64,000 nucleotides of DNA from Candidatus Heimdallarchaeota archaeon (GTDB taxonomy: Archaea > Asgardarchaeota > Heimdallarchaeia > Hodarchaeales > Hodarchaeaceae). A model generated the notes under the pieces. That model was not told where the DNA came from. It was given only the letters and a program-made list of their open reading frames with translations, and searched no databases. Location of the stretch: assembly GCA_048881705.1 (NCBI GenBank), contig JBHLSH010000010.1, positions 1 to 64,000 on the forward strand, in the 5' to 3' direction. The position numbers were made by a program, and so were the translations under genes. Of the stretch, positions 23,041 to 43,808 are shown one piece after another (within the stretch, counting starts at the first letter, position 1; each line of letters opens with the position of its first letter).

Positions 23041-26000
23041 TTACCGCGTACTTTGAATAAACGATTTTGTCTTTCTTTGTTCAAGTTCCCATCTTTTTCT
23101 CTCCGAACGAAGTGCAAATAGATCTACTTCCTTGATAATGATTCCTTCTTTTTTGGGGGGCATCATTCTTTCTTTTCTTTCCTTTTCAGGTGTAAATATA
23201 AGAGAATTCCCAAACTCTGCAACATTGGCGAAGAAGCAGTATGCATAAATTGACCTTCGGGCATCAAAATGAGCAGCCTTGAAATCCTCCGTTACTGGAG
23301 TGAATGCTGGATTAATTATTAGATCTACGGGGGGTTCTGAGTTCTTGAGTTCTACCCTCAAATCCATGTCTAAGAAATCTCTGCAGATTGCTATTGCAAT
23401 ACGGCCGTACTCCGTGTTATAGATCAAGGTCTTATGAATCGGGCCACCAACATCGATTTCCTCGGTTACTTTTCTTCCATCTAGGTGAATTACAGCAGGT
23501 ATGTGCTTATTTTGTCTCCATAGGATACCATCAGGACCAATAACTACACTCTGATTATATTTTGTACTTTCATCGTGATAAGATCCAGGAATTATGTACA
23601 TTCCGTACGATTTCGAAAGATTCAAAATCTCATTATAGAGAATCTCATAATTTAGATCAATAGAGAGTTCAGGGAAGATGAGAATATCGACTCCGTCCGT
23701 GTGAGCCCTTGTAATCATATCATTTACTTTAGATAGCATGAATTCAATTTTATTTTGTTTTAGTCTAATTAATCCATTATTTTTTTTATCATAGAATTCA
23801 TTCAGGAAATCTCCATTACTTGAAATACCAATTTGGGCAATACCTACCTTAAAATACCGTTTGTGACTCCTTGGGGAATCTTGAAGATTGTCTTCATAGA
23901 TTAGCCGGTATTCTCTTAGGATTGAAACCCTTCTCGCTTCTTCGGTGAACTTCCGGATTTCGCTCATCCCTGATGGCAGGCTCGAAACACTAAGATTTGT
24001 TGAAACACTCATGCTTTTTGCGCTTCTAGAGATTGAAGGTTCTTTGATAGTGTTAATCGCGGTAACCAAGATTTCCTCTTCTTTTTCAACCATAGATATA
24101 CGAGTCTGAACTTCATTTTCTTTTTCAACGAAGCCGTGTTTCATGAAAAGTTCAGCTGCAGACTTTAGGTAGCTCGAACCTATCCTTAGGAGAGTTTGTT
24201 TTTTATCCAACTCGATTTCTTTATCTGCTTTAATTAGGTGCCAAGTAGCATCGAAATAAGTGGACGTAGCTAAAACCCAACCGGATGCGGTAATAAAATC
24301 TCCTTTTTGGTATAGCGTGGCGGCGGTTCTCAGGAGGGATTTGATTTCAAGGAACAATTTTTCCTTAATCTTGAGATCATTTGATTCGTCAAATTTACAT
24401 CCATTTGCTAGACTTTGACAAAAAAAGGCGTTACCTGAAGCCAAAAATTTTGTTCTGCTGTCTATTAACAGATTATTAGCTCTTTTAAATAATTCTGAGG
24501 CATTTTGGTACTTTTCAGAATCACCGTACTTCTCTGCAGTTATCATATTCTCCCAAGCCCGACATAAATAATTAAAAGCATCAAATTTTCTTTGTTCCCT
24601 CTTGGTTCCAGAACTTATCGGCGTTTCCTTGAACAGAGAAGCCGCCGATTTCATCTGCTCTGCAGCTGGAATAAGATCTCCTTTTTTCCAGAGAATCTGG
24701 GCATGTTCAATTGAGGAACGGGCAGAACTGTAACTAATCCCAAGATTGGTGAGGGAAATCATCTTGTTAACGCGATCTCGCTCTTTATTGTTGTCAATAT
24801 CCTTTATAGCCTGATTGAAAGCATTCAACGCATTTGTATAAGCGACTTGACATCTTAGAAATTCTGATCGAGAATTCTGATAGTTTTCCTTTGAACTCAG
24901 ATATTCGGCTTTTTCTTGTATAGCTAAAGCTTCAAAGTAAGGGGCTTCATAGGAATGGTCAGGCAGATTTATGAGAATTTTGGAAGCCGCCAAATATTCG
25001 GCTTCCGCATTTTGTTGATCTTCTCTTTTATGATGGATTTTAGCACTCTCAATTAATGCCCATGCATTAGTATAGTTGATTTTCTCAACGATTTTTTCCC
25101 TTAATGGTTTATATTCAATTTTTTCTAAAGATTGGGTGTGTTTTTCTCTGGCTTGAACATAATAATCCGTAGAAAAATTGAAATTCCCTAATTTGTCCTC
25201 TATATGAGCTAGGTTCTCTGAAGCGGCAGCTGAGTAAGAAAAATATCCCCTCTCGTTACAATCATTTAATATGCTTTGAAATAGCTCCCTTAACTTTTCC
25301 AAAAGGTTTGATTGACCGGTTATTTCATACAGTTCCTCGTATAAAAGCCCTATTCGAAATCGTGCATTAATGACTCCTACCCGTGATTCGAGAGCGTAAT
25401 CCGCATATTTTTCCATTGCATCTATGGCCCTAGTGAGGTAACCAATTCGATCTTCCTGATCTTTAGAAATTTCTGCCAAGGTTTTGTAACATCGATAAAG
25501 AGAAGAGAAAGCCGAGGCTCGGGCGAATCCTCCTTCGTAATTTTTCGCGAACTTCTCCCCACGTTCCGCGTACTGAAGCATAATTTTGGCATTCTTTTGC
25601 CGTTCAGGTGCACCTGAAGCCAATATGGTCAACTGGGAATATGCCCATGTTTGCATTTGTAGGGGCCATAAAGATATGGGGGAAGAGGGAATTATCCGTA
25701 AACATTCTAGGGCATATTTATTTGCCATTTCCGCAAACTGACGTCTTTGAGAACTAGAAAAAAAACTCCTCTGAGCAAAATTCGCATAAGCAAAAGTAGG
25801 TAAAAAGTTTGCATAAAAATTGAAGTTATTAAAGGACTGATACATTATTCTTGCATTGCTTTCTAAAGCTGCGAGATCGTTCTGAATTCGATTTTGTAGA
25901 TACTCCACTCTACCCCAGAATAATGCCCACCAATCAGTCCAGGCCGTTGTTAAGGTATTAAGCAATTTATTCTTGGTTTTTTTATTCAGTTCTTCGGCCT

Positions 26001-26832
26001 TCCCAAAATAACTAAACCCTAGTTCCGCAAATTTGTTCTGTTCTTTATCGTTTTCTACAAACTGAAATCCATATGTATTGTTAGTCAAACCTGCGACGTG
26101 ATAGCTCATTTCAAGATACATAGGATTATCATTCGATTCAATGATTGGAATCGCTTCTTCAAGTTTGTCGATAGTTTCTTCCTCGCTTCTTTTCCAATAA
26201 TGGTCCTTTTTTGATAATCCTATAAACCACTCATAATATTTCAAAAGATGTTCAGCAAAGAGAGATTGTGAAAGTGAAAAAGCATCTCTCTGCTCTATTG
26301 CAATGTTCCAAATTTTGTCGATTATCTCTCTACCTTCTTGACGTAAGCGATTAATTTCATCTGAACTGTTTCTGTAAGGGATAAGATTTGAAAGCGCCAT
26401 TGCAGCACGTGCATAAGTTCTAATGTAATATTTGGTATCCTTCTCGATCGAAAATCCTTTATTTGCCTTTAAGAAAAGTTCGTATGCCTCCTCAAATGCA
26501 CCCACCATTTCAAGAATAGATGGGCTAATGAATCCATTAGAAAAAGCAGATTCGGCCATACAGACAAATTTCTCTGGAAGAGCATCTATGCGAGAATAAA
26601 GGTTCGCACCTTCGTTATATGACTCCATAGAAGACCTAAAATATTCTTTATATTCATTTGCCGTCTCTGCCGATTCCGCGCATCTAGTATAAACATATCC
26701 TTGTTTATAACAGGCGTTAGCGGCCAATTTCACCTCTTCATTCTTCAAATACTCTTCTTTCAATTGATCATATAGAGCAGCCGCTTTGATCCAGTTTAAG
26801 TTCTTCTCTTCCCGCCTTACTTTTTCTATCAA
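23041..26832 (-). CDS. 1263-aa helical-repeat (TPR/SNAP-like) protein with C-terminal carbon-nitrogen hydrolase (nitrilase-superfamily) domain
   Basis: About 960 aa of Ala/Tyr-rich helical repeats, a Ser-rich linker, then KVGIAQ, IFPELS (Glu), QNKHIP (Lys), AICRDF (Cys); domain approx. 23041-23856. Confidence 0.85.
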   Translation of the reverse strand: MIEKVRREEKNLNWIKAAALYDQLKEEYLKNEEVKLAANACYKQGYVYTRCAESAETANEYKEYFRSSMESYNEGANLYSRIDALPEKFVCMAESAFSNGFISPSILEMVGAFEEAYELFLKANKGFSIEKDTKYYIRTYARAAMALSNLIPYRNSSDEINRLRQEGREIIDKIWNIAIEQRDAFSLSQSLFAEHLLKYYEWFIGLSKKDHYWKRSEEETIDKLEEAIPIIESNDNPMYLEMSYHVAGLTNNTYGFQFVENDKEQNKFAELGFSYFGKAEELNKKTKNKLLNTLTTAWTDWWALFWGRVEYLQNRIQNDLAALESNARIMYQSFNNFNFYANFLPTFAYANFAQRSFFSSSQRRQFAEMANKYALECLRIIPSSPISLWPLQMQTWAYSQLTILASGAPERQKNAKIMLQYAERGEKFAKNYEGGFARASAFSSLYRCYKTLAEISKDQEDRIGYLTRAIDAMEKYADYALESRVGVINARFRIGLLYEELYEITGQSNLLEKLRELFQSILNDCNERGYFSYSAAASENLAHIEDKLGNFNFSTDYYVQAREKHTQSLEKIEYKPLREKIVEKINYTNAWALIESAKIHHKREDQQNAEAEYLAASKILINLPDHSYEAPYFEALAIQEKAEYLSSKENYQNSRSEFLRCQVAYTNALNAFNQAIKDIDNNKERDRVNKMISLTNLGISYSSARSSIEHAQILWKKGDLIPAAEQMKSAASLFKETPISSGTKREQRKFDAFNYLCRAWENMITAEKYGDSEKYQNASELFKRANNLLIDSRTKFLASGNAFFCQSLANGCKFDESNDLKIKEKLFLEIKSLLRTAATLYQKGDFITASGWVLATSTYFDATWHLIKADKEIELDKKQTLLRIGSSYLKSAAELFMKHGFVEKENEVQTRISMVEKEEEILVTAINTIKEPSISRSAKSMSVSTNLSVSSLPSGMSEIRKFTEEARRVSILREYRLIYEDNLQDSPRSHKRYFKVGIAQIGISSNGDFLNEFYDKKNNGLIRLKQNKIEFMLSKVNDMITRAHTDGVDILIFPELSIDLNYEILYNEILNLSKSYGMYIIPGSYHDESTKYNQSVVIGPDGILWRQNKHIPAVIHLDGRKVTEEIDVGGPIHKTLIYNTEYGRIAIAICRDFLDMDLRVELKNSEPPVDLIINPAFTPVTEDFKAAHFDARRSIYAYCFFANVAEFGNSLIFTPEKERKERMMPPKKEGIIIKEVDLFALRSERKRWELEQRKTKSFIQSTR

Positions 26833-27008
26833 AGTTTATCAGCCTTGTAATAAATTATTTCTTCATATAGCGAAATATAAACCTTGTTAACCTTAAGTTA
26901 TAAATTAAGATTAAGATGATTTTTTCGAATAACTCCTAGATTTCGGTGATAGAACGATCAGCTTATTAACTGTTTAAACAGGTTCGTTGCTAAATCAAAG
27001 GGAAGATT

Positions 27009-27812
27009 ATGGTTTGTTATCCAATCCCTAAAAAGAAGTGTGGGGTTAAAATCAAAGATGCCCTAAGGCTTATACCAGACTTGAAAGTCATTAAGGGCGG
27101 TCAAACCAATCGAATTGACCTAGGAGATCCAATTACTTTATTACTATACAATCGATTAATATTGAAAGATTTCTTGAATTTAGATTTTTCAATTCCAAAA
27201 GGGTTTTTGGTTCCAACCATATGCAATCGGTGGGCATTTGTGGATTGGATTCTTCAGGAACATCCGTCCTACGTTCTGGAAGTTGGTACTGGAGCGTCAG
27301 CAATTTTGGCTTTAATGTTTGCTGCAATGGGATGTAAGGTCGTAGCCACAGAAATCAATAAGGATGCTTTTCTTTCCGCTGAAGAGAATGTTGTTCGGAA
27401 CTCATTCCAAGAATTAATCGTTCTCAGATATGTAAAGGATCCGAAACATATTTTGGCAGATCTATTTCAATCAATTGAACAATTCGATGCAGTGGTTTGT
27501 AATCCACCTCAGTATGATCATGAATACTTTCAAAATCAATTACGAAGTAAAAAAGGATTTTTAGGTCAAGAATCAGAACTTGTGGGAGGTATTGAAGGAA
27601 CAGAGTTTTTAAGAAGGTTTTTGAAAGAGGGATCGTCGTATCCCAATTTCCCAGCAATCTATTTTCAGCTATTAAACCCCAAAATATTTACAAAAGTAGG
27701 AGAATTTCTAACCAAGAATGATTTTCACTTTAACGAGAAGAAAATTTCATTTGGAACCCGAACTAGATCCTTTTTCCGAGTATACGGAAAAGGATCTGGA
27801 AAATTCACATAG
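27009..27812 (+). CDS. RlmF/METTL16-family adenine N6 RNA methyltransferase
   Basis: LYNRLILKDFLNLDFSIPKGFLVPTICNR, LEVGTGASAI, ATEIN, CNPPQY, ELVGGIEG. Confidence 0.75.
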   Translation: MVCYPIPKKKCGVKIKDALRLIPDLKVIKGGQTNRIDLGDPITLLLYNRLILKDFLNLDFSIPKGFLVPTICNRWAFVDWILQEHPSYVLEVGTGASAILALMFAAMGCKVVATEINKDAFLSAEENVVRNSFQELIVLRYVKDPKHILADLFQSIEQFDAVVCNPPQYDHEYFQNQLRSKKGFLGQESELVGGIEGTEFLRRFLKEGSSYPNFPAIYFQLLNPKIFTKVGEFLTKNDFHFNEKKISFGTRTRSFFRVYGKGSGKFT

Positions 27813-27842
27813 AAGGCTGGATTTTTGCTCTCATAAACATGA

Positions 27843-28205
27843 TTAACCAACCAATTTGGACGGGGATGAATCAATCGCTTCTTCTAGAATCTCAACTGCT
27901 TTTCTCAGGTGAGGAATAACGATGGAACCACCGACTACTAAGGCAACAGTAAATGCCTCATAGAATTCTTCTTCCGTTACACCTATCTGGTGACACTGAA
28001 GGATGTGGTATGTAATACAGTCATTACAACGTAGCACCATAGACGCAACAAGACCAAGGAGTTCCTTGGTCTTAGATGAAAGCGCTCCATCATAATAGGT
28101 TCGTGTGTCTAGATTGAAGAACCGTTTAATCTCAAGATTCGATTTTTCCAGAATGATCTCGTTCATTTTTTCTCGGTATTGATTAAAATCATCGATTTTC
28201 GACAT
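27843..28205 (-). CDS. Carboxymuconolactone decarboxylase / AhpD-like protein
   Basis: GALSSKTKELLGL, CxxC motif (RCNDCITYH). Confidence 0.85.
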   Translation of the reverse strand: MSKIDDFNQYREKMNEIILEKSNLEIKRFFNLDTRTYYDGALSSKTKELLGLVASMVLRCNDCITYHILQCHQIGVTEEEFYEAFTVALVVGGSIVIPHLRKAVEILEEAIDSSPSKLVG

Positions 28206-28851
28206 CTAATCACCGTTGGTCTGCCTCTCTCCTCGTGCTTTTGTGTACTGTGAGAAATGCTCCATAATCAAGATATGCTAGGTTAATCAAACAATAATTA
28301 ATTACGGGGGTCCTTTGCCATTTTTTTTTCCAATCTCTGTGATTTGTTGCGTTTCTTAATAGATTGAAATTATTAATTACTCCTCCACCTATTTTAAGAA
28401 TGGAAACTGTTGTAAAACAAGGACGGCTGTACAAGGATCGATATTTATAAGGTTGAAATGTAAAAACCTCTTTACTGGCTTATTCATTCCAATTCGTGTA
28501 TGATTCGCATATTTAATGCTAAATAATATTAGTTCAAATGCTGGAACTATCTTCTACCCTTTTAAACTTAGAAATACGTTCTCAGTAGGGTCCCTTTCTT
28601 TTTTAATCACCATAGAACGGGTGGATACGCGTAAAATTACCCAAAAATGGGATTGAATCCCTGAAAAATCTTGTAGATGAATTCTTTGGAAATTAAGTGC
28701 ATCTCAGCCTTTTATCAGTAAATAAATTGGGCAGGGAATCTGACCTGATAAAGAAAGGTTATATCGTCTTACTAGATGAAAATGGCTGGTCATCCTTAAC
28801 TAGCGGAACTAACATAAGGTTCATAATCCTCCTACTTCTCCCACAAACCAG

Positions 28852-30075
28852 GTGATTCTGAGCATGATCACGAGTACGCTTAATCTAACGATGTCACAAA
28901 AATTTCGATCAATTTTGGAGGAAGTTAGTGAATTTATGGTAAATAAAGTGTTCCCGTTAGAACCCCAACTTGCAGGAAAATCGTTTCGGCAAATGCTTCC
29001 AACTCTTGACAATCTGAGAAGAGAGGTTAAAAGCCTGGGCTTATGGCTACCTCAGATTCCCAAAGAATATGGTGGACTGGGTTTAACATTAGTCGAACAC
29101 GGGATTTTAAGTGAAGAATTAGGGAAATCACCCTGGGGCCATTACTTATTCAACTGTCAGGCGCCTGATGCAGGCAATATGGAAATCCTCATTGAATACG
29201 GTACAGATGAACAGAAAGAGAAGTACCTAATGCCATTATTGAGCGGAAATATCAGGAGCTGTTTTTCAATTGTAGAACCAGATTGTCCAGGCTCAAATCC
29301 TACCTGGATTGAGACGATTGCGGAAAAGGACGGGGAAGATTACGTCATTAATGGTCATAAATGGTTTAGTTCCTCAGCCGATGGAGCAGCTTTTGCAATT
29401 GTAATGGCGGTTACAAATCCCGAACAAGAAAAACGCCATTTTAAGGCCAGCCAAATAATTGTTCCAGCAAACACACCAGGATTCAACTTTGTTAGAAACA
29501 TTCCCGTAATGGGTCATGTGGGAGAAGATTGGGCCAGCCATGGGGAGATTAAATACGAGAATTGCCGGGTTCCGCAAAAAAATCGACTAGGCGATGAAGG
29601 TATGGGTTTCGTAATAGCTCAGCAGCGCTTGGGCCCAGGACGAATCCATCATTGTATGCGATGGCTTGGAATATGTGAAAGGGCTTTTGATTTGATGTGT
29701 CGTAGAGCGGTTGACCGCGAAGTTGCACCAGGACGGACTTTGGCTATTCAGCAGACTGTCCGTAATTGGATTGCAGAAAGTCGGGCGGAAATAAACGCTG
29801 CTCGTCTATTAGTTCTAGATACGGCCCATAAGATTGATACTGAAGGTGTTTATGCAGCCCGTATTGATATTTCACTTATTAAGTTCTTTGTGGCCAATAC
29901 TTTACAAAGGGTCTTGGATCGGGCAATTCAAGTCCATGGGGCACTGGGCATGACCAATCAGACTCCCCTCGCGTTTTGGTATGCCCTTGAACGGGGTGCT
30001 CGTATTTATGATGGTCCTGACGAGGTTCACAAATTTTCGGTTGCAAAGCGAATCTTAAGCCAATATGAATCTTGA
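28852..30075 (+). CDS. Acyl-CoA dehydrogenase, ACAD10/ACAD11/LvaC type (likely start ATG 28891)
   Basis: FNCQAPDAGNME, INGHKWFSS, RLGPGRIHHCMR, RIYDGPDEVH. Confidence 0.9.
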   Translation: MILSMITSTLNLTMSQKFRSILEEVSEFMVNKVFPLEPQLAGKSFRQMLPTLDNLRREVKSLGLWLPQIPKEYGGLGLTLVEHGILSEELGKSPWGHYLFNCQAPDAGNMEILIEYGTDEQKEKYLMPLLSGNIRSCFSIVEPDCPGSNPTWIETIAEKDGEDYVINGHKWFSSSADGAAFAIVMAVTNPEQEKRHFKASQIIVPANTPGFNFVRNIPVMGHVGEDWASHGEIKYENCRVPQKNRLGDEGMGFVIAQQRLGPGRIHHCMRWLGICERAFDLMCRRAVDREVAPGRTLAIQQTVRNWIAESRAEINAARLLVLDTAHKIDTEGVYAARIDISLIKFFVANTLQRVLDRAIQVHGALGMTNQTPLAFWYALERGARIYDGPDEVHKFSVAKRILSQYES

Positions 30076-31198
30076 TTCCTACCTGAACTTATTCATCCAG
30101 ATTGGTGGTACATTCAACGTGATTCCCGACGAGCGAACGGAAAATGATACTATTTCTGTTCGTGCTGATGAAACATTTGACACAAGATCTCTTGCTCGCT
30201 ATCTCAGTGATAAACTTCCTGGTACACAAGTATCTCTCACTGTAAGACAATTTTGGGGTGGGGCGGCAAATTTGACATATCTTCTTGATTTTGAAGGTAA
30301 AGAATATGTTCTACGTCGTCCTCCGCTCGGACCGGTGGCAAAATCCTCTCATGATATGAATCGGGAATACAGTGTGCTTTCTGTGCTACACAAGGCATTT
30401 CCGTATGCTCCCCAAGCCTATTTGTTCTGTGAAGATCCTTCAGTTATAGGTGCCCCGTTTTTTATAATGGAGCGAAAAAAGGGATTTGTTATCCGTAGAT
30501 CGTTTCCCAAAGGATTAACTCCTTCACCGCAAATTGCTACTAAGATCAGTAACCAATTAGTAGATCGTTTAGTCGAATTCCATGACGTTGACTACGAAAG
30601 TTTGGGATTATCTGAGTTAGGGCGGCCTGAAGGTTTTATCAAGCGTCAAGTGGAAGGGTGGTATAGACGATGGCATCGGGCGAAAACCGAAGACAATGTA
30701 GACGTTGATCAAGTTTATGATTGGTTAAGGAAGAATATTCCGAAGACTGAGCATTTTTCCCTTGTCCACAATGATTTTAAACTTGACAATGTCATGGTTG
30801 ATAGCTCTGGACAGATAGTAGCAATTTTTGATTGGGATATGTGCACTCTTGGGGACCCTTTGTCCGATCTAGGTGCGCTGCTTACCTATTGGACTGATCC
30901 CACTGATCCTCCTTACCTTCAGGTACTTTCAACGATGCCGACCCACGAAAGTATCGGATGGCCGTCTCGTCAAGAGTTAATCGAAAGGTATGAAGCGAAA
31001 AGTGGGATAGCAGTAAACAATGTCCAATTTTACCATACGCTCGGTTTGTTTCGTCTTACTGTGATTATTGCCCAGATCTATATTCGCTTCGTTAAAAAGC
31101 AAACCCAAGATCAACGTTTTGAAGCCTTGGGTACGATTATTCCGTTTGTTGCTCGTGCAGCAATTGAAACTGCATTAGGTAACTTTCCGGGAGAGTAG
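30065..31198 (+). CDS. APH-family phosphotransferase (ACAD10/11 kinase domain / LvaA-like)
   Basis: GGAANLTY, VLRRPP, HDMNREY, HNDFKLDN, FDWDMCTLGDPLSDL; overlaps the upstream ACAD by 11 nt. Confidence 0.88.
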   Translation: MNLDSYLNLFIQIGGTFNVIPDERTENDTISVRADETFDTRSLARYLSDKLPGTQVSLTVRQFWGGAANLTYLLDFEGKEYVLRRPPLGPVAKSSHDMNREYSVLSVLHKAFPYAPQAYLFCEDPSVIGAPFFIMERKKGFVIRRSFPKGLTPSPQIATKISNQLVDRLVEFHDVDYESLGLSELGRPEGFIKRQVEGWYRRWHRAKTEDNVDVDQVYDWLRKNIPKTEHFSLVHNDFKLDNVMVDSSGQIVAIFDWDMCTLGDPLSDLGALLTYWTDPTDPPYLQVLSTMPTHESIGWPSRQELIERYEAKSGIAVNNVQFYHTLGLFRLTVIIAQIYIRFVKKQTQDQRFEALGTIIPFVARAAIETALGNFPGE

Positions 31199-31252
31199 AA
31201 TGCTTTTGAACCGTGGATCGTCTTGAGTGTAGCGTTTTAGAGGTCAGGAACT

Positions 31253-32716: not shown

Positions 32717-32952
32717 GGTGACCAAAAAGATACACAGGTGTGAAAATAAGGCTAGTTTACCATTACGGGGATTAAAAGACCTTTGCACTAATATACGGTG
32801 GCTATTGGGTAATATAACTGGAATACAATCAAAACGCATAACCATAAAAATGAGGACGGAGGGAATTTACTTGCATATATAGACAATGTGGGTTGGTTTT
32901 CTAGTTTAAAATTGCTGGAAACAACTAGGAAGAGGTTCTATCATTATTAGGA

Positions 32953-33993
32953 TTGAAAAAAATGCTTAAAGAAATCTTTTTGATGCGGGATGGTATGTTA
33001 ACATATCATTTCGGAAGAGAATCACAAACCACAGTTAGTGATGAGGTCATTCTCAGTTCTGGTCTTTTGAGTGCATTGACTGACTTCAGTAAGACGGCAC
33101 GGTCGGATTTCTTAGAGTCCTTTTTTACAGAGAGAGAACACTTCCTATTTATACGTTATCCGAAGACAGACAATGTCCTCGTGGGAGTTTTCGAACGTGA
33201 TACCCCAGATTCGCTCGCGCTTAGAGGTTTGAAACGAATCCAGGACCTTATTGCTGCGGCTGACTTACCAGAAGAAAACGCAGTAATTGATCTAAATACC
33301 CCAGAGAAAAGGGCTCTTTCAAAGGAACTTTCCGAATTTACCGACCGCTTCTTTGGTCGTGAGGGAGAAGCAACGTACATTGAAGAACTCCTTGAAAAGC
33401 GGACAAATATTTCCTTGGCATTCCTTGTCGATACAGATAATAAGGAACTCATAGCCAAGTTCGCCCGCCCTCGGCCACTGTTTAGAGCACAACACGCTAC
33501 GGACTTTTTTCTTCTGAACGACACGTTATCAACAACATTGTCGCGATTAGGGATCGAAAGTTATTCTTATTTCAACATATTATCCAAAGAGTATGTAACA
33601 TCCGTGGTAAGGAGTGGCTCTAGGTGTAGTGTTGCTTCAGGATCATTGTATACAAATAAAAAAGAAGTAGTGGAGACTGCGTTGGCAATGTTCCACTATT
33701 CCAATTTAGATGAACTAATCGGTAAAAAATTCAAAACCAACTTAGTAACTCAAGCCATTCTGCAGTTTGATGGCAATTTCAAGCAACTACTTGGAGAACC
33801 GTTGCCCGTCCAATTTGCAATTACCTTTCTCGCCCTGATCAACATCGTTAAGGGTTTCTTTCGATTACTTACTCCAAGAAATTTCGAATTATTCGAAATA
33901 GTTTGTCACTCTAAGGAACACAACGAGAGGATAGTAATCTCAAAGCAGAATGATAATGAAAACTACAATATCGAATTATTCTCATCAAGATAG
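32953..33993 (+). CDS. Longin/roadblock-like multidomain protein (eukaryotic signature protein type)
   Basis: EIFLMRDGMLTYH...ILSSGLLSALTDFS longin pattern; second alpha/beta module LAFLVDTDNKELIAKF. Confidence 0.6.
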   Translation: MKKMLKEIFLMRDGMLTYHFGRESQTTVSDEVILSSGLLSALTDFSKTARSDFLESFFTEREHFLFIRYPKTDNVLVGVFERDTPDSLALRGLKRIQDLIAAADLPEENAVIDLNTPEKRALSKELSEFTDRFFGREGEATYIEELLEKRTNISLAFLVDTDNKELIAKFARPRPLFRAQHATDFFLLNDTLSTTLSRLGIESYSYFNILSKEYVTSVVRSGSRCSVASGSLYTNKKEVVETALAMFHYSNLDELIGKKFKTNLVTQAILQFDGNFKQLLGEPLPVQFAITFLALINIVKGFFRLLTPRNFELFEIVCHSKEHNERIVISKQNDNENYNIELFSSR

Positions 33994-34076
33994 ATCTTCA
34001 ATTCCTAACAAAAACTTAAACTATCTAACATTTAGAAGGGGGAAGAAGGTATAACCTCTTTTTATGGGATCGATAA

Positions 34077-34811
34077 ATGTCACATGCTATTAAAGAGGGT
34101 CAAAAGGGGAGATTGGATGCAGTTTTCTTATATGGCGGTATTTTAGACGCTTATGAAGCGGTAGGTATGGAATTAATTGGCCCAAATGTTGTAGAGGATT
34201 ATGTATTCCCAAAAATGGTCTACTATGTTCGAGAATTTTTGCCAGGTATTTTCAATAAGTCTGCCCCTGACCCCGAACGATTGGTATCTGACCTAAGGTC
34301 ATGGTTGGATGACTTTAAACTAAAGATTTCTCGCGCACGTGAACTGAAAAAGAGCGTAATGTTCTCATTAGAGGAGATTTGGCAGTTAAGAGCTGCGATC
34401 TTCGGATATGAAAGCGTCTTTATCGACATCTTAGGAGAAACTGCAATCAAGACGTATGTTTTTAGTCGAATAGCAGATATCTTGTCCTCCTACCTACCAG
34501 ATGTCTTTCTTGGGGAGGAAAAAACGTTAGAAGAAAAATTGAATGCCTACCTGGACTATATCAGAGAAAAAAGATTTGTACAATATACAAGTGTGAGAAT
34601 AAAAGGGAACTCCGTTCGAATCGCCGCCAACAAATGCTACTTTGCTGACATACATAAATCAGAAGCCTATCAAAAATCAAATGTCAGATTCTGTCCATGG
34701 GGAATGATTGGATCAGCCATAATTACAAGTCATAAGGGGGATAGAGCAACCATTGAATCTTGTCAATTTACAACTAGAGGAAGTATTTCTAAGATAGTTA
34801 CTGAGAAATAA
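34077..34811 (+). CDS. V4R/MetOD1/Bet3-like domain protein with an internal duplication
   Basis: Repeat GILDAYEAVGMELIG..VVEDYVF vs AIFGYESVFIDILG..AIKTYVF; C-terminal Cys pattern KCYF..FCPW..SCQF. Confidence 0.55.
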   Translation: MSHAIKEGQKGRLDAVFLYGGILDAYEAVGMELIGPNVVEDYVFPKMVYYVREFLPGIFNKSAPDPERLVSDLRSWLDDFKLKISRARELKKSVMFSLEEIWQLRAAIFGYESVFIDILGETAIKTYVFSRIADILSSYLPDVFLGEEKTLEEKLNAYLDYIREKRFVQYTSVRIKGNSVRIAANKCYFADIHKSEAYQKSNVRFCPWGMIGSAIITSHKGDRATIESCQFTTRGSISKIVTEK

Positions 34812-34821
34812 TGGGTTAATT

Positions 34822-35337
34822 ATGACGCTCGTGCAAGATCTAGTTTTCAATGGTTATAATATTCCGACTCTCGCCTTATTAGTGCTCATTGTTGAGGTTG
34901 TCCTTTTCTGTGGCTTGTTTGTTGGGTGGTATTTTGGTGCACGTCGCTTGAACATCACGCTGCATCATTGGATGGTCTATGGGGCGACAATTGCACACTT
35001 AACAGTTTGGTTGCTAGTGATGCTGCCCAATGCACTAAGAGCGGCCCCTCGAGTTTTGGCCGATCCTCTTGGACGGTGGATTCCCTTTGCCCATTGGACC
35101 ATGGGATCAATTACAATTGCACTAAGTCTTTTCATCACCATTTCTTTCGCTGTAAAACGTTTTGAAATACGCTTGCGAACTTTGATCAATTTCAGACCAT
35201 TGATGATTGCAACGGTTATTTGTTGGACAATCACACTATTCCTAGGGCTTCTAGTCTTTTTAACGGTCAAAGTGCGGCCAATCGCGACCCCAGAAAACCT
35301 GATTCAAAGCTTGAACGTAATTCTATATTACCTATAA
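34822..35337 (+). CDS. Four-TM membrane protein, DUF420/cytochrome-b-like
   Basis: Four hydrophobic helices with intramembrane His (LHHWM, AHLT, FAHW). Confidence 0.55.
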   Translation: MTLVQDLVFNGYNIPTLALLVLIVEVVLFCGLFVGWYFGARRLNITLHHWMVYGATIAHLTVWLLVMLPNALRAAPRVLADPLGRWIPFAHWTMGSITIALSLFITISFAVKRFEIRLRTLINFRPLMIATVICWTITLFLGLLVFLTVKVRPIATPENLIQSLNVILYYL

Positions 35338-35378
35338 CGGCAGCTGTCATATTTAGAGCAAAAGGGATATAGTTAACC

Positions 35379-36587
35379 ATGACACCCATCAAAATCCCTC
35401 AATCACGACTAAGTGAACGTAGGGGTCAATTTTTTAAAATTTTAACCGCCGAACACGAACTACGGCACTTTATAGTCCTTAATCCCATTTCAATTTATTA
35501 TTTAACTGGTTTTGTCTTGATACCTACCGAACGTCCTTTCTTTTTGATATGTACGAATATAACGAGGAATCCCTCCATTAATTTTTTTGTACCAGAACTG
35601 GAAAAGCAACACGTTCAGGAGGAGGTTCCGTTTGTCGAGGAAGTTGAAAGCTATTTTGAATATCCAGGCGAAGTACATCCAATGACCAAATTTGCCTCAT
35701 TTTTGAAGGACAAATTGCGAATCTCTGGTAACATTGGAGCAGAGGGCGCAGGAGCTCCAGGCAAATGGGGATATATAGGTCCATCTTTCAGTGATGTCTT
35801 GAAATTTCCAGTAAGAATCGTCTCTGATATCATTGCTAACATGCGGATCATTAAAGATGAAGATGAATTGGCCTCCATTCGTGAAAGTGCAAAATGGGGT
35901 AATTTAGCTCATCGATTGTTGCAAGACTATACTGCGGTCGGAGAAAATGAAATCGACGTATCGTTTCGAGCCTCTCACGAGGCATCGAAACGTATGCGGG
36001 AAGCTCTAGGTCCCGATTATTCGCCGATTGGGTACGGTGCGCGTCCCTGCGGTGCAGGATACAGAGGACAGATAGGACCTTATTCAGCAATCCCTCACGC
36101 AATGACCCGCAATGCCGTATTCCATAAAGGTGATACATTGGTTACGGGAGCAGGCGGAAATGTTGCAGGATATCTTTCGGAATTAGAAAGAACCATGTTT
36201 ATGGGAGAGCCAAATAAAAAGCAGAAAGATTACTTTGATATTATGATTCGCGCCCAGAAGGCTGCTTTTGAAACACTTGGGCCTGAGGTACCTTTATCCA
36301 AAGTAGATAAGGCCACACGTGCTGTTTTTAAAGATTCTGGTGTGTTAAACCTAGTTCAACATCACACGGGCCATGCTCTCGGATTAGAAGGTCATGAACG
36401 CCCTTTTCTTGATCTCGGAATGGATGAGCTTCTAAGGCCTGGAATGGTTTTTTCCGTTGAACCAGGAATCTACGACCGTTCTATCGGGGGTTTTCGGCAT
36501 TCAGACACGATTATAATAACAGCAGATGGGATAGAAATTATCACAGAATATCCTCGAACTTTAGAGGAATTGATTATTTATAACTGA
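35379..36587 (+). CDS. Xaa-Pro peptidase (M24 family)
   Basis: YLSELERT, HHTGHALGLEGHE, SVEPGIY, GFRHSDT. Confidence 0.9.
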   Translation: MTPIKIPQSRLSERRGQFFKILTAEHELRHFIVLNPISIYYLTGFVLIPTERPFFLICTNITRNPSINFFVPELEKQHVQEEVPFVEEVESYFEYPGEVHPMTKFASFLKDKLRISGNIGAEGAGAPGKWGYIGPSFSDVLKFPVRIVSDIIANMRIIKDEDELASIRESAKWGNLAHRLLQDYTAVGENEIDVSFRASHEASKRMREALGPDYSPIGYGARPCGAGYRGQIGPYSAIPHAMTRNAVFHKGDTLVTGAGGNVAGYLSELERTMFMGEPNKKQKDYFDIMIRAQKAAFETLGPEVPLSKVDKATRAVFKDSGVLNLVQHHTGHALGLEGHERPFLDLGMDELLRPGMVFSVEPGIYDRSIGGFRHSDTIIITADGIEIITEYPRTLEELIIYN

Positions 36588-36687
36588 TGAGTTAAAACTT
36601 GAGGGACTTATTCTAGCACACAAGTTTTTCTATTCGTATTCCGAGTCAGCATCCTAAAAAATCTTAAATGACTTCTGAATTACAGAT

Positions 36688-37602
36688 TTGGTGACTTCCT
36701 ATATGGAACTTCCAGCAAATTTAATACAGGTCGAGTGGAGCTTCTTTCAGAGGAGTCTGTTCAGGTTTGCCGCGCTGGTCGTTCCAAAATTTTGCCATAA
36801 CTTTTTTCAATTCGAAGTGAGCGGCCTGGAAAACACCTCAGATCTTCCAGAAGGTAAACCAGTAATATTCTGTGGAAATCACAGATCGCATCTTGATGGG
36901 CTATTACTCGGAAGTGCAATCATAAAACCATATGGAAACCGGACTAGGCTAGGATTCATGGCATCAGGGAAGGCCATGGATGGTAACGTGTTTTTTGGCC
37001 TTCTCCGAGTATTGGGGGCATTTCCGGTATATCGTGAAAATCCCAATCTCGCACTGGATTATGCAGTACGGCTATTGAAGAAAGGATTGGGTGTCCTGAT
37101 CGCTCCCCAGGGAAAGAGAATCTTTAGCCATCCACTTCATGATTACTTCAATCTATTGAAAGAAGGAAGGACTGGGGTAGGTCGTGTTATCCTTAAACTG
37201 AATGGAAAAGTCCCAATTGTCCCGTTTTATTGCCATGGAGCGGCCGAAGCCTTAGGAATCGGAAGAATCGTTCCCAAATACAAAGCTTTCGTGTCTGTTT
37301 CATTTGGAAAGCCCCTATACTTCGATGATTACTCTCAAAACGGAGGATGGGATGATTCAAAGCCTGAATTCTATGAAACATCAAGAGAAATAGTAAACAA
37401 GGTTATGATATCTATCCGTAACTTGCTTGTTCTCCAAGAGCAGCATTATTTCAATATCATAAAGAAGAAGTTTCGAGTAAAAGAACTGGAAGATATTATA
37501 ATCCCGACAGGTTCGCGGAAAACATCTCTCAATAAATTTCTCTACAATCTCTTACACTACCACCCTCGGGACTTACAGAGGCTCGCGGAACGTTCAAAAT
37601 AA
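36688..37602 (+). CDS. Lysophospholipid / 1-acyl-sn-glycerol-3-phosphate acyltransferase (PlsC/LPLAT family)
   Basis: NHRSHLD (HX4D), GAFPVYR, IAPQGKR, GVGRVIL, VPIVP, VSFGKP. Confidence 0.85.
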   Translation: MVTSYMELPANLIQVEWSFFQRSLFRFAALVVPKFCHNFFQFEVSGLENTSDLPEGKPVIFCGNHRSHLDGLLLGSAIIKPYGNRTRLGFMASGKAMDGNVFFGLLRVLGAFPVYRENPNLALDYAVRLLKKGLGVLIAPQGKRIFSHPLHDYFNLLKEGRTGVGRVILKLNGKVPIVPFYCHGAAEALGIGRIVPKYKAFVSVSFGKPLYFDDYSQNGGWDDSKPEFYETSREIVNKVMISIRNLLVLQEQHYFNIIKKKFRVKELEDIIIPTGSRKTSLNKFLYNLLHYHPRDLQRLAERSK

Positions 37603-37765
37603 ACACCTAACGCGGAATGGGTCGCGTCATTTGGAACAGGGGCGATCAGTGAACCCCCCTATCGCTGAATCCAACAGTAAAGATTGACCAATGGTTGATT
37701 CACCATTCATCATTTGATTAGGGTTTTGAAATCTAATCACGAATCATACAGCTAGTTGTTTTAGG

Positions 37766-39025
37766 TTATAAAAAGGCGCTTTGACCGAAAGCCCCCTCAT
37801 CAGCCGGATCTAATAAACCCAATAATATCGCTGGCAATCCGCTTCCATCACCATCATCATCATAATACGGATTTTCGGGCCGGGAATCCTGGTCACTAGC
37901 ATACATAAAGGCTTCATACATTGAGACTTTGCCATCGTTATTTAAATCCGAATTTACTATACCCGGATCTCCATTGATTTTTAGTTCAGCAACGGCGCAC
38001 ATGAAGTGATAGACAAATTCATCCCAAGGCCCTTCTGTGTCGCAACCATATGAAGATTGTATTGGACTTGCGGCAGTCAAGATAACTCTGCCTGATTTAC
38101 TTAAAACAGGAATAAAAACACCTGATTTACACTGTTCCATAACAATAATTTCTTGATTATATTGAATATTCACGAGCATATTATTAAGCTCATTGGGAGT
38201 GAGAGCGTAGGGATCCATCGGCCCCCACAGGCTGAGGCCTGAACTCCCGCCATGATTGGTAGTATAAATGAATAAATTATCTGATCGGGTCATCTTGTTC
38301 TGAAGTTCAGTGAACACAGTTTGTATATAGGTATGAGTTGCGGGTCCATGAACAGGAGCAAAGCCATTTTCCGGGATTCCGTCCTTATACACGATATAGA
38401 TGTTCTGCGGATCATAGCCATATAACCATGTCAAAATGAAGTACATAGCAGTGATATCATTCCAGTACCTGGAGTAGGCCTTTTCTGGTTTAATCCCACC
38501 ACTAATCAATACAGCGTATTTCCGTTGGTTGAAGGGAAACTGGGTAATATCATAAAGTTTGGAAGTGTCGATGAACTTGTTTTGTAAATGATTCAATGCC
38601 CCTTCCTTAATAAGTGAGTGAGATCCATATGTAATTTCCAACAAACCTTCGGTTTCATCGGCCCAAGAAATTCGCCCTTTAAGGTGTACTTGCGCTCCTA
38701 TCTGTGTCTGTAGTAATGATGGCACATTACCACCTATTATCAGATAATTGTCCGGTGTTAGTGAATTATTTTCGAATATAACTGGCTCAGTAATCAGCAG
38801 GGATATATTGGATCCTCCTTCGACATAATATCCATCTAGAGTAACCGTTTTCCCGAGGTAATCGGCCTTATTATTATTTAGAATTGTTACAACATCGAGT
38901 GGTACGTCCTCTTGCGGAGTTACTGGAAAGAGGGTTGTAAAATAGTAAAACTGAAATACATTCAAACCAGCAAGACTAACTACGAGGAAAAAAACGAAAA
39001 GAGACTTCTTGGACATGGTAATCAC
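37766..39025 (-). CDS. Secreted or membrane-anchored C13-family (legumain/GPI8-like, clan CD) cysteine peptidase
   Basis: N-terminal hydrophobic helix; YAVLISGG, RYWND, YTTNHGG (His), MEQCKSG (Cys), DLNNDGKVS. Confidence 0.75.
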   Translation of the reverse strand: MITMSKKSLFVFFLVVSLAGLNVFQFYYFTTLFPVTPQEDVPLDVVTILNNNKADYLGKTVTLDGYYVEGGSNISLLITEPVIFENNSLTPDNYLIIGGNVPSLLQTQIGAQVHLKGRISWADETEGLLEITYGSHSLIKEGALNHLQNKFIDTSKLYDITQFPFNQRKYAVLISGGIKPEKAYSRYWNDITAMYFILTWLYGYDPQNIYIVYKDGIPENGFAPVHGPATHTYIQTVFTELQNKMTRSDNLFIYTTNHGGSSGLSLWGPMDPYALTPNELNNMLVNIQYNQEIIVMEQCKSGVFIPVLSKSGRVILTAASPIQSSYGCDTEGPWDEFVYHFMCAVAELKINGDPGIVNSDLNNDGKVSMYEAFMYASDQDSRPENPYYDDDGDGSGLPAILLGLLDPADEGAFGQSAFL

Positions 39026-39154
39026 GATCTCTCTTCGAAATTCACCCCGTTAGTTAAATAGCTGTTTTTACGATATGAATAGAGGGAGTTGAAGTTAGGA
39101 TCTGTTGGATCTTTCTCACTCTACTGATTTGAAAATTCCGCTGGGATTCCGCAA

Positions 39155-41749
39155 TTGGTAGTGGTTGAGATGTTTTTGGTTGCTCTAGGAATATTGTTTA
39201 TTTACGGTCGATTCTTTTTAGGTGAGGCGATCCTTATGAGCTTGGAAGTAATTCAGAAATTAATCCAAGATGAGAAACTAGATGATGCTCTCTCAAGAAT
39301 TGAAATACTCGAGAGGAAGGATCGAATTGAGGGAGAAGTACTTAAGAGCCTCATATTTCGGATACGACGCGATTACGATGGTGCATTATCGATTTTAGAG
39401 AAGATTCTCAATTCCCGCCTGGAACAACTTAATCCTGTTCAAGAATTTGGGGCACGAAATGCGAGAATACAAACCTTGTACAAATTAAGGAGATTTTCTG
39501 AGATTACAGAAGAAGTCGAAATGTGTGACATTATTTTATCGAAAATGAATGATTCTGACAGGCAAAAAATACGGGAATGGGAAGGAGAATTATTGGCATT
39601 TAAGGGGGGGTTTCAAATTTCTATTGGTGAATTCGATAAAGCCTTAGATTTTTTCAAAAGAAGCTTGAACTTGTTTAGGGAAATCAATCATAAACGAGGT
39701 ATTTATTATCAATTAAATAATATAGGCTGGATATTGAGGGCCAGAGGAAGTTTAGACGAAGCGCAATACTATATACAGAAACAATTGGAAATCAGTAAAG
39801 CGATAGGGAATACCAAGTATATCGCTTGGTCCAATTATTCCCTAGGTTACATCCACTATTATAAAGGGGAATTAGACGCAGCATTACGATGTGCTGAAGA
39901 AAGTTTTGAGATCTTTGATGATTTAGAACATGAGATAGGTCTTTCTGAAGTTTCAACTCTTATGGGTTCAGTCCATCAAGGAAAAGGAAATTTTAGGAAA
40001 GGTATTCAGTATTATGATAAAGCTCTAAAGGATTATTCTCCATCTTCATCTCGGGATGTTCCCCATGGTTATTGTGTTACCTTTCGGTATTTGGGCGCTG
40101 TTCATTATCACCAAGGTGAACTAGAAAAGGCGATTGAATATTTCAACAAAGCAATTGATATTCACAAGTCAATATGCAAATCCAGAAATACTTTCTTGGA
40201 TTTTGAGCTGGCCATCCTTCATTTGTACTTAACCATGGTATATGTTGAACTCCACAATGAACAACAAATCGACGTGTCACAGCAGAAGCTGGATGAATAC
40301 GTAGAGCGGTGGCCATGGCTAGATGTTGTAAAAAAGCTAGCTCAGGCGCTCGTTTTAAAAGAAAAAAAAAGAGCAGTCTACAGATTTCAAGCTCAACAGA
40401 TTCTGCAAGAAATCAAGGAAGACAAATTTGACTATGAAATTGAGTTTATGATCAAAGTAAATCTCTGTGAATTATTATTAGATGAACTGAAATATTCCGG
40501 AGAAGAAACAATTATATTAGATATTCAACAATTATTAGATCAGATTTCAAATCTAGCAGACAAACAAAGATCGATTACGACCTTGGTATCCTTATATTCC
40601 CTTCAAGCAAGGCTTTCATTAATTGAAGGCAAATCCGACCTATCGAAAGAATTACTTGAAAAAGCGCTTGCGATCGCTGAAGATAAAGGATTAGGACTGA
40701 TATATTCAAAATTATTAATTCAGCGGCAGGAATTTATAGGTCAATTAGATGAATGGAAAAAACTATTTATCCGTAATTCGACATTACAGGAAAGGATTGA
40801 GCTTTTAAACCTCCGTGAATACATTTCGAACGCCATAAATGATGTCTTAGAAGATAAGTTCAAAACGCTAACAAGATTCAAATTGGTCTATAAGGATCTA
40901 TATCATTCTCATGCTAGAACTCAGAAGCATAAATGTCGAATCGGAATAGCCCAAATAGGAATCTCGGAAACTGATGATATTCTAAGCGATCTCTTTTGTT
41001 CAAAAATTCCTGGTTTGTTTAATATACGGAAAGAAAAAGTTGAATTCATCAGAAATTCGATCAAAAACAAAATACGGAGGGCTTTCGCGAAGGGCATCAA
41101 CATTCTGTTATTCCCCGAGCTTATCGTCGACCTGAATTACAAGTTTTTAAGAGAGGATATCTCAAAATCTGCTCAGATGTATGGAATGTACATAATTCCT
41201 GGGTCCTTTCATGATCAAACGACCAATCGAAATACAAGTATTGTGTTTGGCCCAAAAGGTGTGCTGTGGGAGCAAGAGAAGCATCACCCTGCAACCATCT
41301 ATGTTGCTGGAAAAAAGATCAAGGAGGGCATATCCGTTGATAAATTTCCCAGAAACACCATTGTATGCAATACAGAGTACGGAAGGATGGCAATCTTAAT
41401 CTGTCGCGATTTTCTTGATCTGGATTTCAGAGCAGAGTTGAAAAACTTCGATCCACCAGTAGACATTATTTTTAATCCAGCTTTTACACCAGTTACCGCT
41501 GATTTCAAAGCGGCGCATTTCGATGCCCGAAGATCGATTTATGCTTACTGTTTCTTTGCCAATATTGCCGAGTTTGGTGATTCTTTCATCTATACTCCTG
41601 AAAAGGAGAGAACAGAATATAAGATTCCCCCTAAAAAGGAAGATTTGATCTATAAAGATGTAGACATTTTTCAGCTACGCTCTGAGAGAAAAAAGTGGGA
41701 GAAAGAAATGAAAAAGACAAGATCGTTTATCCAGAGCACTCGGACATAA
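39155..41749 (+). CDS. TPR-repeat protein with C-terminal carbon-nitrogen hydrolase (nitrilase-superfamily) domain (likely start ATG 39237)
   Basis: Canonical TPRs (NNIGWILRARGSLDEAQYY, RYLGAVHYHQGELEKAIEYF); LFPELI, QEKHHP, LICRDF triad; domain approx. 40934-41749. Confidence 0.87.
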   Translation: MVVVEMFLVALGILFIYGRFFLGEAILMSLEVIQKLIQDEKLDDALSRIEILERKDRIEGEVLKSLIFRIRRDYDGALSILEKILNSRLEQLNPVQEFGARNARIQTLYKLRRFSEITEEVEMCDIILSKMNDSDRQKIREWEGELLAFKGGFQISIGEFDKALDFFKRSLNLFREINHKRGIYYQLNNIGWILRARGSLDEAQYYIQKQLEISKAIGNTKYIAWSNYSLGYIHYYKGELDAALRCAEESFEIFDDLEHEIGLSEVSTLMGSVHQGKGNFRKGIQYYDKALKDYSPSSSRDVPHGYCVTFRYLGAVHYHQGELEKAIEYFNKAIDIHKSICKSRNTFLDFELAILHLYLTMVYVELHNEQQIDVSQQKLDEYVERWPWLDVVKKLAQALVLKEKKRAVYRFQAQQILQEIKEDKFDYEIEFMIKVNLCELLLDELKYSGEETIILDIQQLLDQISNLADKQRSITTLVSLYSLQARLSLIEGKSDLSKELLEKALAIAEDKGLGLIYSKLLIQRQEFIGQLDEWKKLFIRNSTLQERIELLNLREYISNAINDVLEDKFKTLTRFKLVYKDLYHSHARTQKHKCRIGIAQIGISETDDILSDLFCSKIPGLFNIRKEKVEFIRNSIKNKIRRAFAKGINILLFPELIVDLNYKFLREDISKSAQMYGMYIIPGSFHDQTTNRNTSIVFGPKGVLWEQEKHHPATIYVAGKKIKEGISVDKFPRNTIVCNTEYGRMAILICRDFLDLDFRAELKNFDPPVDIIFNPAFTPVTADFKAAHFDARRSIYAYCFFANIAEFGDSFIYTPEKERTEYKIPPKKEDLIYKDVDIFQLRSERKKWEKEMKKTRSFIQSTRT

Positions 41750-43760: not shown

Positions 43761-43808
43761 CTCTAATTGTATTCTAACTTTTCGTATACACGCAAACTCA
43801 GAAAATTA

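Follow-up and report, generated by a model that had tools for sequence, protein, structure and literature searches.

The closest described systems to the proteins treated here are bacterial anti-phage systems built on a reverse transcriptase (RT). In DRT1 (UG1) the nitrilase is the effector; it requires oligomerization, and conserved residues at the C-terminus gate it as a lid (PMC13275509). Among the class 3 UG/Abi RTs, some proteins have a nitrilase and others a phosphohydrolase (PMC9226505). In a stretch of 64,000 nucleotides from Candidatus Heimdallarchaeota archaeon (assembly GCA_048881705.1, contig JBHLSH010000010.1, positions 1 to 64,000 of the forward strand; hereafter the window), we studied two large genes whose products join an alpha-helical repeat scaffold to a C-terminal nitrilase domain, and which a first-pass annotation of the DNA had proposed to be ligand-gated amidases or deaminases with exchangeable sensor modules. 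Like DRT1 (9yfd) and the class 3 UG/Abi proteins, the two products place a nitrilase with an intact catalytic tetrad after an alpha-helical repeat region; the extreme C-terminus is conserved in DRT1 as it is in the Asgard proteins, and the alternation of nitrilase with phosphohydrolase in class 3 recurs on an Asgard scaffold. Unlike DRT1, the Asgard proteins match no RVT family at E ≤ 0.1, hence have no DNA-adduct control, and their scaffold is far larger, archaeal and found outside defense islands. Their sequence identity to DRT1 is low.

Other fusions of a sensor to a nitrilase are bacterial and themselves uncharacterized. CARF-nitrilase candidates (PADLOC PDLC01989), putative ancillary proteins of type III CRISPR, share the nitrilase sub-type of the cassette (E 5e-14), and nSTAND3-PUA proteins of an ESM Atlas cluster carry a nitrilase-like domain fused to their sensor (TM score 0.73), but in these the sensor is a CARF domain or a STAND NTPase and not a bare solenoid. 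Since the CARF_nitrilase model was matched only in its nitrilase part (positions 165-388 of 457), the Asgard proteins do not count as CARF proteins. The comparison with Avs-type immune proteins drawn in the first-pass annotation is a loose one. Avs and other STAND proteins do have a repeat sensor and an effector on one chain, effectors that vary on a conserved sensor frame, and several paralogues per genome; however, Avs consists of a central STAND NTPase with an N-terminal effector, whereas the two window proteins lack an NTPase and show the reverse order, repeats N-terminal and enzyme C-terminal, with AAA_16 occurring only in a sister architecture of the Asgard family. Full-text literature searches found no published description of the family; the words nitrilase and TPR are absent from the 2026 paper on the Asgard defensome, and the 2024 paper on Asgard defense systems (PMC11291487) is not among the papers containing 'nitrilase', 'Asgard' and 'defense'.

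The two genes and their nitrilase cassette

As far as sequence and modeling allow it to be read, the two genes belong to a large, almost Asgard-confined family in which a single chain consists of a predicted peptide-binding, TPR-type alpha-solenoid, a flexible linker and a nitrilase cassette of 292 aa. Two classes of solenoid, A and B, are represented, and the parts are as follows.

23041..26832, minus strand: gene 1 (P0001), an intact open reading frame (ORF) of 1263 aa beginning with TTG; made up of a class-A solenoid, a linker and the nitrilase cassette
25609..26832, minus strand: gene 1 N-terminal solenoid module, residues 1-408, the least conserved part
24061..25608, minus strand: gene 1 C-terminal solenoid module, residues 409-924, by profile a remote collinear homologue of the gene 2 TPR array
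23920..24060, minus strand: gene 1 Ser-rich linker, residues 925-971, directly N-terminal of the cassette
23044..23919, minus strand: gene 1 nitrilase cassette, residues 972-1263, with E1055, K1109, E1124 and C1150, ending in FIQSTR
39155..41749, plus strand: gene 2 (P0002), an intact ORF of 864 aa from TTG; probable true start ATG 39236 (837 aa)
39236..40765, plus strand: gene 2 class-B TPR superhelix, about 27 helices
40766..40867, plus strand: gene 2 linker between TPR array and cassette, a low-confidence model segment (511-544)
40868..41746, plus strand: gene 2 nitrilase cassette, ORF residues 572-864, with E655, K709, E724 and C750, ending in FIQSTRT

That both genes end in one and the same nitrilase domain, as first noticed by eye, was confirmed by BLASTP, where gene 1 residues 972-1263 and gene 2 residues 572-863 aligned without gaps at 166/292 identities (57%, E 9e-114); the earlier hand count of 96 identities in the last 125 residues proved exact. 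The catalytic Glu, Lys and Cys seen in both are joined in the alignment by the second Glu, leaving the Glu-Lys-Glu-Cys tetrad intact in each protein. Translation of gene 2 probably starts at ATG 39236 (ORF residue 28), because the family profile and the collinear paralogue P0003 both begin there, and the 27 codons upstream are probably not translated. These codons (39155-39235) spell a hydrophobic, membrane-helix-like stretch that the homologues do not have. A third full copy is found in the same genome, an 892-aa protein on contig C41 whose N-terminus is collinear with that of gene 2 at 25% identity, together with a fragment at that contig's end. The closest relative of gene 1, with a cassette 94% identical, is in a Candidatus Thorarchaeota metagenome-assembled genome (MAG). 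No upstream motif common to the three genes of the genome was found, and upstream sequence was common only to recent tandem duplicates in another genome.

By sequence and predicted fold the cassette is a nitrilase-superfamily domain. Pfam CN_hydrolase (PF00795) scored 39.2 bits in gene 1 (E 6.4e-10) and 29.0 bits in gene 2, both above the cut-off of 23.2. In an alignment of 40 diverse members, Lys and the second Glu never vary, and the first Glu and Cys are conserved in 90% or more; the full tetrad is present in 38, while of the other two, one has Asp in place of the first Glu and one has Gly in place of Cys. Many other residues are invariant as well, and the FIQSTR end is nearly so. The AlphaFold2 (AF2) model of the gene 1 cassette gave a confident nitrilase fold (pLDDT 91.3), and Foldseek returned 213 PDB matches at E ≤ 0.001, of which the top matches listed were all nitrilase-superfamily enzymes; model and matches alike display the four-layer alpha-beta-beta-alpha fold of the superfamily.

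Modeling also suggests that the cassette pairs with itself through the canonical two-helix 'A' interface of nitrilases. The predicted homodimer reached an ipSAE of 0.42 against 0.00 for the best control. Among proteins solved as pairs 20 of 30 attained this mark, and among those solved as single chains 1 of 23; solved nitrilase dimers exist, so the pass may reflect model memory or mere likeness. Runs agreed in at least 60% of contacts with a partner pLDDT of at least 86, and the predicted interface is formed by cassette helices 185-195 and 213-226, where invariant residues are numerous. The FIQSTR tail was not among the confident contacts of this prediction; a role as a lid, as in DRT1, could be suggested for it only by analogy. 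In the AAA_16 architecture described below the FIQSTR motif is internal, so a free C-terminus is not essential.

It could be argued from such pairing that the nitrilase is mainly an oligomerization or filament core that unites different scaffolds, possibly in mixed assemblies of paralogues, and that catalysis is secondary. The very high conservation over the whole domain, predicted dimer helices included, and the presence of several paralogues with near-identical cassettes in one genome would fit this, as would DRT1, where the nitrilase forms a tetramer and filament core with the other domains outside. We nevertheless hold this explanation to be quite improbable, since a purely structural role would not need the tetrad that 38 of the 40 aligned members keep, and since the domains that replace the cassette on some scaffolds, TIR and metallophosphoesterase (see below), are enzymes.

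Relatives and partners of the cassette

By profile and by predicted fold, the nearest relatives of the cassette appear to be the effector nitrilases of bacterial anti-phage systems (DRT1, CARF-nitrilase and nSTAND-nitrilase) and not metabolic enzymes. The PADLOC models for RT-associated nitrilase and CARF-nitrilase match the cassettes at 1e-10 to 1e-14 (8e-14 and 5.7e-13, respectively, for gene 1), and the generic Pfam nitrilase model at 1e-7 to 1e-10, while the curated models lie far from recognition: 13.4 bits against a cut-off of 500 for the archaeal nitrilase NF040852 of NCBIfam, and 21 bits against 132.9 for Lnt (TIGR00546). In a profile search of the PDB, DRT1 (9yfd) was the sole solved chain matched across the entire cassette (E 3.9e-6). 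Outside the family and its myxobacterial sister, the ESM Atlas clusters closest in fold were bacterial RVT_1 proteins (TM score 0.79), bacterial proteins 394-653 aa long that share no family (0.78) and the nSTAND3-PUA proteins (0.73). Solved metabolic nitrilases such as Nit2/omega-amidase (2w1v), the Pyrococcus amidase (6ypa) and beta-ureidopropionase share the alpha-beta-beta-alpha fold and the tetrad, but they are stand-alone enzymes and reached TM scores of 0.59-0.68 at 14-19% identity in Foldseek. Because DRT1 was not among the Foldseek matches in the PDB library (to April 2026), it is the ESM Atlas and the sequence profile that support a structural relationship with RT-nitrilases. The sister group of the cassette consists of Myxococcota alpha/beta-hydrolase-nitrilase proteins (e.g., Sandaracinus amylolyticus WP_053232411.1), with 43-47% identity, an FxQSTR end and a TM score of 0.89; they differ in having an alpha/beta-hydrolase of about 300 aa as the N-terminal partner, and are bacterial and uncharacterized, with uninformative genomic context.

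The cassette was found in 812 longer and 188 short proteins, mostly Asgard, at 53-94% identity. The short matches are mostly labeled 'partial' or lie on tiny contigs, i.e. they are mainly contig-end fragments, and the cassette is almost never stand-alone. An exhaustive search of 50%-identity representatives gave 49 clusters at E<1e-30, followed by a gap, below which come distant relatives that combine a nitrilase with HEAT or LRR partners. The partners of the cassette itself are listed below; Pfam confirmed TPR, AAA_16 with alpha/beta-hydrolase, protein kinase, FIST and beta-helix/NosD.

Class A: solenoid of about 970 aa, as in gene 1
Class B: TPR array of about 550 aa, as in gene 2
AAA_16: cassette inserted at residues ~130-420, with an alpha/beta-hydrolase at the end
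Protein kinase
FIST
Long beta-helix arrays (beta-helix/NosD)
Alpha/beta-hydrolase, in Myxococcota

The exchangeability of modules is thus more pronounced than had been proposed, with the cassette on many unrelated N-terminal modules and, conversely, other domains in its place on the solenoid. In the cassette tree the architectures are intermixed, class A requiring 11 changes, and one well-supported clade of 20 rows with very short branches unites class A, AAA_16, FIST and a further partner. Class-A cassettes are 82-92% identical to those joined to FIST, AAA_16, kinase and TPR, whereas class-A proteins from different lineages share about 60% identity. The cassette is a discrete unit (KKYxLxYxDLL...FIQSTR), and its boundaries are sharp, from KKYxLVYRDLL at the start to FIQSTR at the end, and in a FIST fusion of another lineage the class-A linker has moved along with it. 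Cassette identity across unrelated partners that exceeds the identity between like architectures of different lineages is direct evidence that a defined cassette has recently been exchanged between unrelated partners. One contig with the AAA_16-nitrilase-hydrolase architecture belongs to an assembly labeled candidate division Zixibacteria (GCA_035543075.1, L009) and also has archaeal-looking genes (a Fae/OMPdecase fusion and DUF996); an error in binning may account for the bacterial label.

The scaffolds

While the N-termini of the two proteins gave no significant match in BLASTP (E 2 or worse), as first stated, this holds at the BLAST level only. A profile comparison by hhalign aligned gene 1 residues ~409-931 collinearly with almost all of the gene 2 TPR module over 433 columns (probability 99.1%, E 9e-19), where reversed-sequence controls gave E 0.1. 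The proposal of two different solenoids is to be rejected because of this collinear alignment: the two solenoid classes are, at the level of profiles, remote relatives, the TPR array of gene 2 corresponding to the C-terminal half of the gene 1 solenoid, and class A has an extra front module. The two halves of class A did not match each other in profile-profile comparison, and the module of gene 1 residues 1-408 had no strong match to the class-A C-terminal half or to the TPR class. The front module also occurs by itself, the N-terminal ~320-440 residues of class A being found as separate proteins of 341-482 aa in other Asgard genomes:

G245:C1:1617011-1618282, stand-alone class-A N-terminal protein
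G139:C28:47122-48429, stand-alone class-A N-terminal protein
G299:C23:2959-3924, stand-alone class-A N-terminal protein

Residues ~5-73 of gene 1 (26620-26832) bear a weak likeness to the VPS4 MIT domain (E 0.09), and two homologues carry precomputed PF04212 matches; this segment could be a three-helix bundle of the ESCRT-III-binding type, or merely TPR-like helices.

The class-A proteins are collinear homologues of one another, and conservation along them is uneven, with a mean pairwise identity among 15 proteins of 30-37% over residues 1-362 and of 57-61% over 763-962. Their genes often stand in tandem arrays; in one genome four class-A genes in a row are followed by a fifth with the same scaffold (42% identity over 980 aa to class A) and a Cys-rich, zinc-ribbon-like tail. 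A scaffold-profile scan of 301 Asgard genomes uncovered further ends. Full-length class-A scaffolds terminate in TIR_2 (6e-18 and 1.3e-14), in a calcineurin-like phosphoesterase (Metallophos, 4e-12) or in a 149-aa domain without a Pfam match (L058:1243-1689, minus strand). By eye, the pattern of this last domain recalls roadblock/longin-like domains. The replacement of the nitrilase by TIR or phosphoesterase on one scaffold echoes the alternation in the class 3 UG/Abi RTs.

In gene 2 the TPR array is recognized by Pfam (TPR_12 1.1e-26, TPR_MalT 5.9e-19), and the full-length AF2 model shows a 27-helix superhelix over residues 1-510 at high pLDDT, then a low-confidence linker and the nitrilase. 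About 25 class-B scaffold paralogues are present in the genome, of which two and a fragment carry the nitrilase; most are 440-740 aa long and end within 25 residues past the scaffold end. Two adjoining paralogues on C77 carry extra C-terminal stretches, 143 and 167 aa long, that match nothing identifiable.

81..1636, plus strand: class-B TPR scaffold without enzyme in the window, as two ORFs (81-854 and 956-1636), with 28% identity over 213 aa to the end of the gene 2 TPR; the match (E 2e-11) is to the last part of the TPR, up to the junction
Contigs C125, C111, C25, C72, C77, C8, C99, C23, C61 and others: class-B paralogues

Foldseek matched the gene 2 superhelix to the peptide-binding TPR superhelices of OGT, SPY, LGN and CTR9, which raises a serious rival to any role in conflict, namely that the TPR superhelix recruits protein substrates, as in OGT and SPINDLY, and that the nitrilase modifies them by deamidation of Gln, Asn or an N-terminal amide or by deacylation of lysine, in ordinary cellular regulation. 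Enzymes of the nitrilase superfamily that act on proteins exist, such as the N-terminal amidase Nta1 and the acyltransferase Lnt, and a weak Lnt match (1.6e-4) was obtained here. The closest structural matches are indeed superhelices attached to or serving enzymes, OGT and SPINDLY likewise setting a long TPR superhelix before an enzyme domain, and the TPR scaffold family, being large and mostly enzyme-free in this genome, resembles general interaction scaffolds; the housekeeping genomic context (see below) would suit this explanation too. The likeness to OGT is, however, one of architecture: the fold and chemistry of the enzyme differ, and OGT shows no sign of effector swapping. The presence of the cassette on FIST, kinase, beta-helix and AAA_16 partners and its replacement by TIR or phosphoesterase fit interchangeable outputs better, the nearest relatives of the cassette are defense effector nitrilases, and the distribution is patchy even inside a genus. 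On balance we consider a protein-directed amidase unlikely, though deserving of serious attention.

Distribution, context and possible function

The search of Asgard genomes proposed with the first annotation yielded, besides the many partner types, a distribution that is accessory, multi-copy and uneven among members of one genus. Of the 301 Asgard genomes sampled, 94 have the cassette, in 5 of 30 sampled families (one through a single weak match); within the genus to which the window belongs, 13 of 20 genomes have it. Single genomes contain as many as 8 matches, the number of candidates scored per genome being capped at 8. Named records come from Thor-, Prometh-/Loki-, Hod- and Hermodarchaeota and from one Odinarchaeota MAG; a few cassette-bearing bins under other names are probably misassigned.

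Neighboring genes in the window include a Peptidase_C13 (legumain/caspase-like) gene at 37766-39025 on the minus strand, divergent from gene 2; Peptidase_C13 is not among the 25 commonest Pfam families beside 20 other family loci. The flanks at 28852-31198 and 41775-44996 contain genes for an acyl-CoA dehydrogenase, a kinase, a fusion of 3-hydroxyacyl-CoA dehydrogenase and enoyl-CoA hydratase, and a thiolase. Enoyl-CoA hydratase genes were seen near 4 of 20 family loci, several of these loci being syntenic relatives.

Such neighbors raise the possibility of an ordinary metabolic nitrilase or amidase fused to scaffolds for localization and perhaps tied to acyl-CoA or fatty-acid genes nearby. 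Both flanks in the window would agree with this, and beside family loci one repeatedly meets enoyl-CoA hydratase, acyl-CoA dehydrogenase and alcohol dehydrogenase genes (of 140 neighbor ORFs, 4 matched ECH_1 and 6 ADH_N). Yet there is no conserved operon partner, several of the recurring neighbors come from syntenic relatives and are not independent, and acyl-CoA dehydrogenases are also present in the control regions. With the curated metabolic models scoring far below their cut-offs, and with cassette exchange and the TIR swap not fitting a metabolic enzyme, we regard this explanation as very improbable.

The reading that we favor, and to which we give about an even chance, is that of a scaffold-gated amidase, dependent on oligomerization or assembly, in a conflict or stress-signaling system. 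A sensor-effector logic is suggested by the exchange of the cassette, the TIR and phosphoesterase swap, the kinship with effector nitrilases, the variable front end and the accessory, multi-copy distribution. It can be envisioned that a trigger, either a protein or a peptide, is bound by the solenoid at its variable front end, that binding alters the assembly of the nitrilase domains, and that assembly activates a C-N hydrolase on an amide- or amine-bearing metabolite, as in DRT1 and other nitrilases, the outcome being growth arrest, defense or a stress signal. The effector-less TPR paralogues may serve as extra binding partners or regulators. Ligand gating, defense and toxicity are what we infer for these proteins; for the deaminase activity named in the first-pass annotation there was evidence neither for nor against.

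A number of findings weigh against a sensor-effector system of this kind. No NTPase family was detected in the products of gene 1 or gene 2 by profile search, and no known switch mechanism applies. The window neighbors are housekeeping genes (SAICAR synthetase, RNA methyltransferase, a CMD-family protein, M24 and C13 peptidases and beta-oxidation genes). When the ORFs adjoining 20 family loci were set against those of control regions lying at a distance of 40-60 kb on the same contigs, no enrichment of defense families was seen, with 10 PADLOC families, all generic, among 140 neighbor ORFs against 80 among 136 control ORFs. There was also no conserved partner gene, the Pfam tallies of neighbors and controls consisting of scattered metabolic genes and small GTPases. 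The contexts in the Sandaracinus genome, the 'Zixibacteria' MAG and three Asgard contigs were uninformative, and IMG/VR viral contigs contained no relatives of the cassette. The cassette, with a mean column identity of 66%, is unusually conserved for a conflict effector. About 22 of the 25 class-B scaffolds of the genome are enzyme-free, implying that the scaffold has a role of its own. Finally, the placement of TPR relative to nitrilase in the full-length model of gene 2 is uncertain (pTM 0.60), and at that value, with low linker confidence, the model says nothing on autoinhibition or on the linker plugging the TPR groove.

A more specific form of the favored reading, which we put forward tentatively and consider rather doubtful, would make these proteins NTPase-independent, single-chain immune or stress receptors of Asgard archaea. 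They would be giant solenoids of the TPR type whose front evolves rapidly and whose C-terminal outputs (nitrilase, TIR, metallophosphoesterase or zinc ribbon) can be interchanged, supported by a large repertoire of effector-less TPR paralogues; nitrilase assembly would be controlled by the trigger, as in DRT1, and the active nitrilase would destroy an essential amide-bearing metabolite.

Of all the outputs of prokaryotic immunity, nitrilase effectors are among those understood least, the substrate of DRT1 being unknown even with its structure solved in 2026. In this family one very conserved nitrilase cassette is available in hundreds of natural versions, on simple scaffolds that have no RT, and the TIR and phosphoesterase swaps on some scaffolds make it a clean system for learning what such a nitrilase hydrolyzes and how assembly gates it. 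If the proteins are protein-directed amidases, they would represent a new type of post-translational regulator. Solenoids of TPR, HEAT and LRR repeats coupled to enzymes are common in eukaryotes. If the receptor-effector system proves true, a class of solenoid receptors without an NTPase would be added to the defense and signaling repertoire of the archaea closest to eukaryotes.

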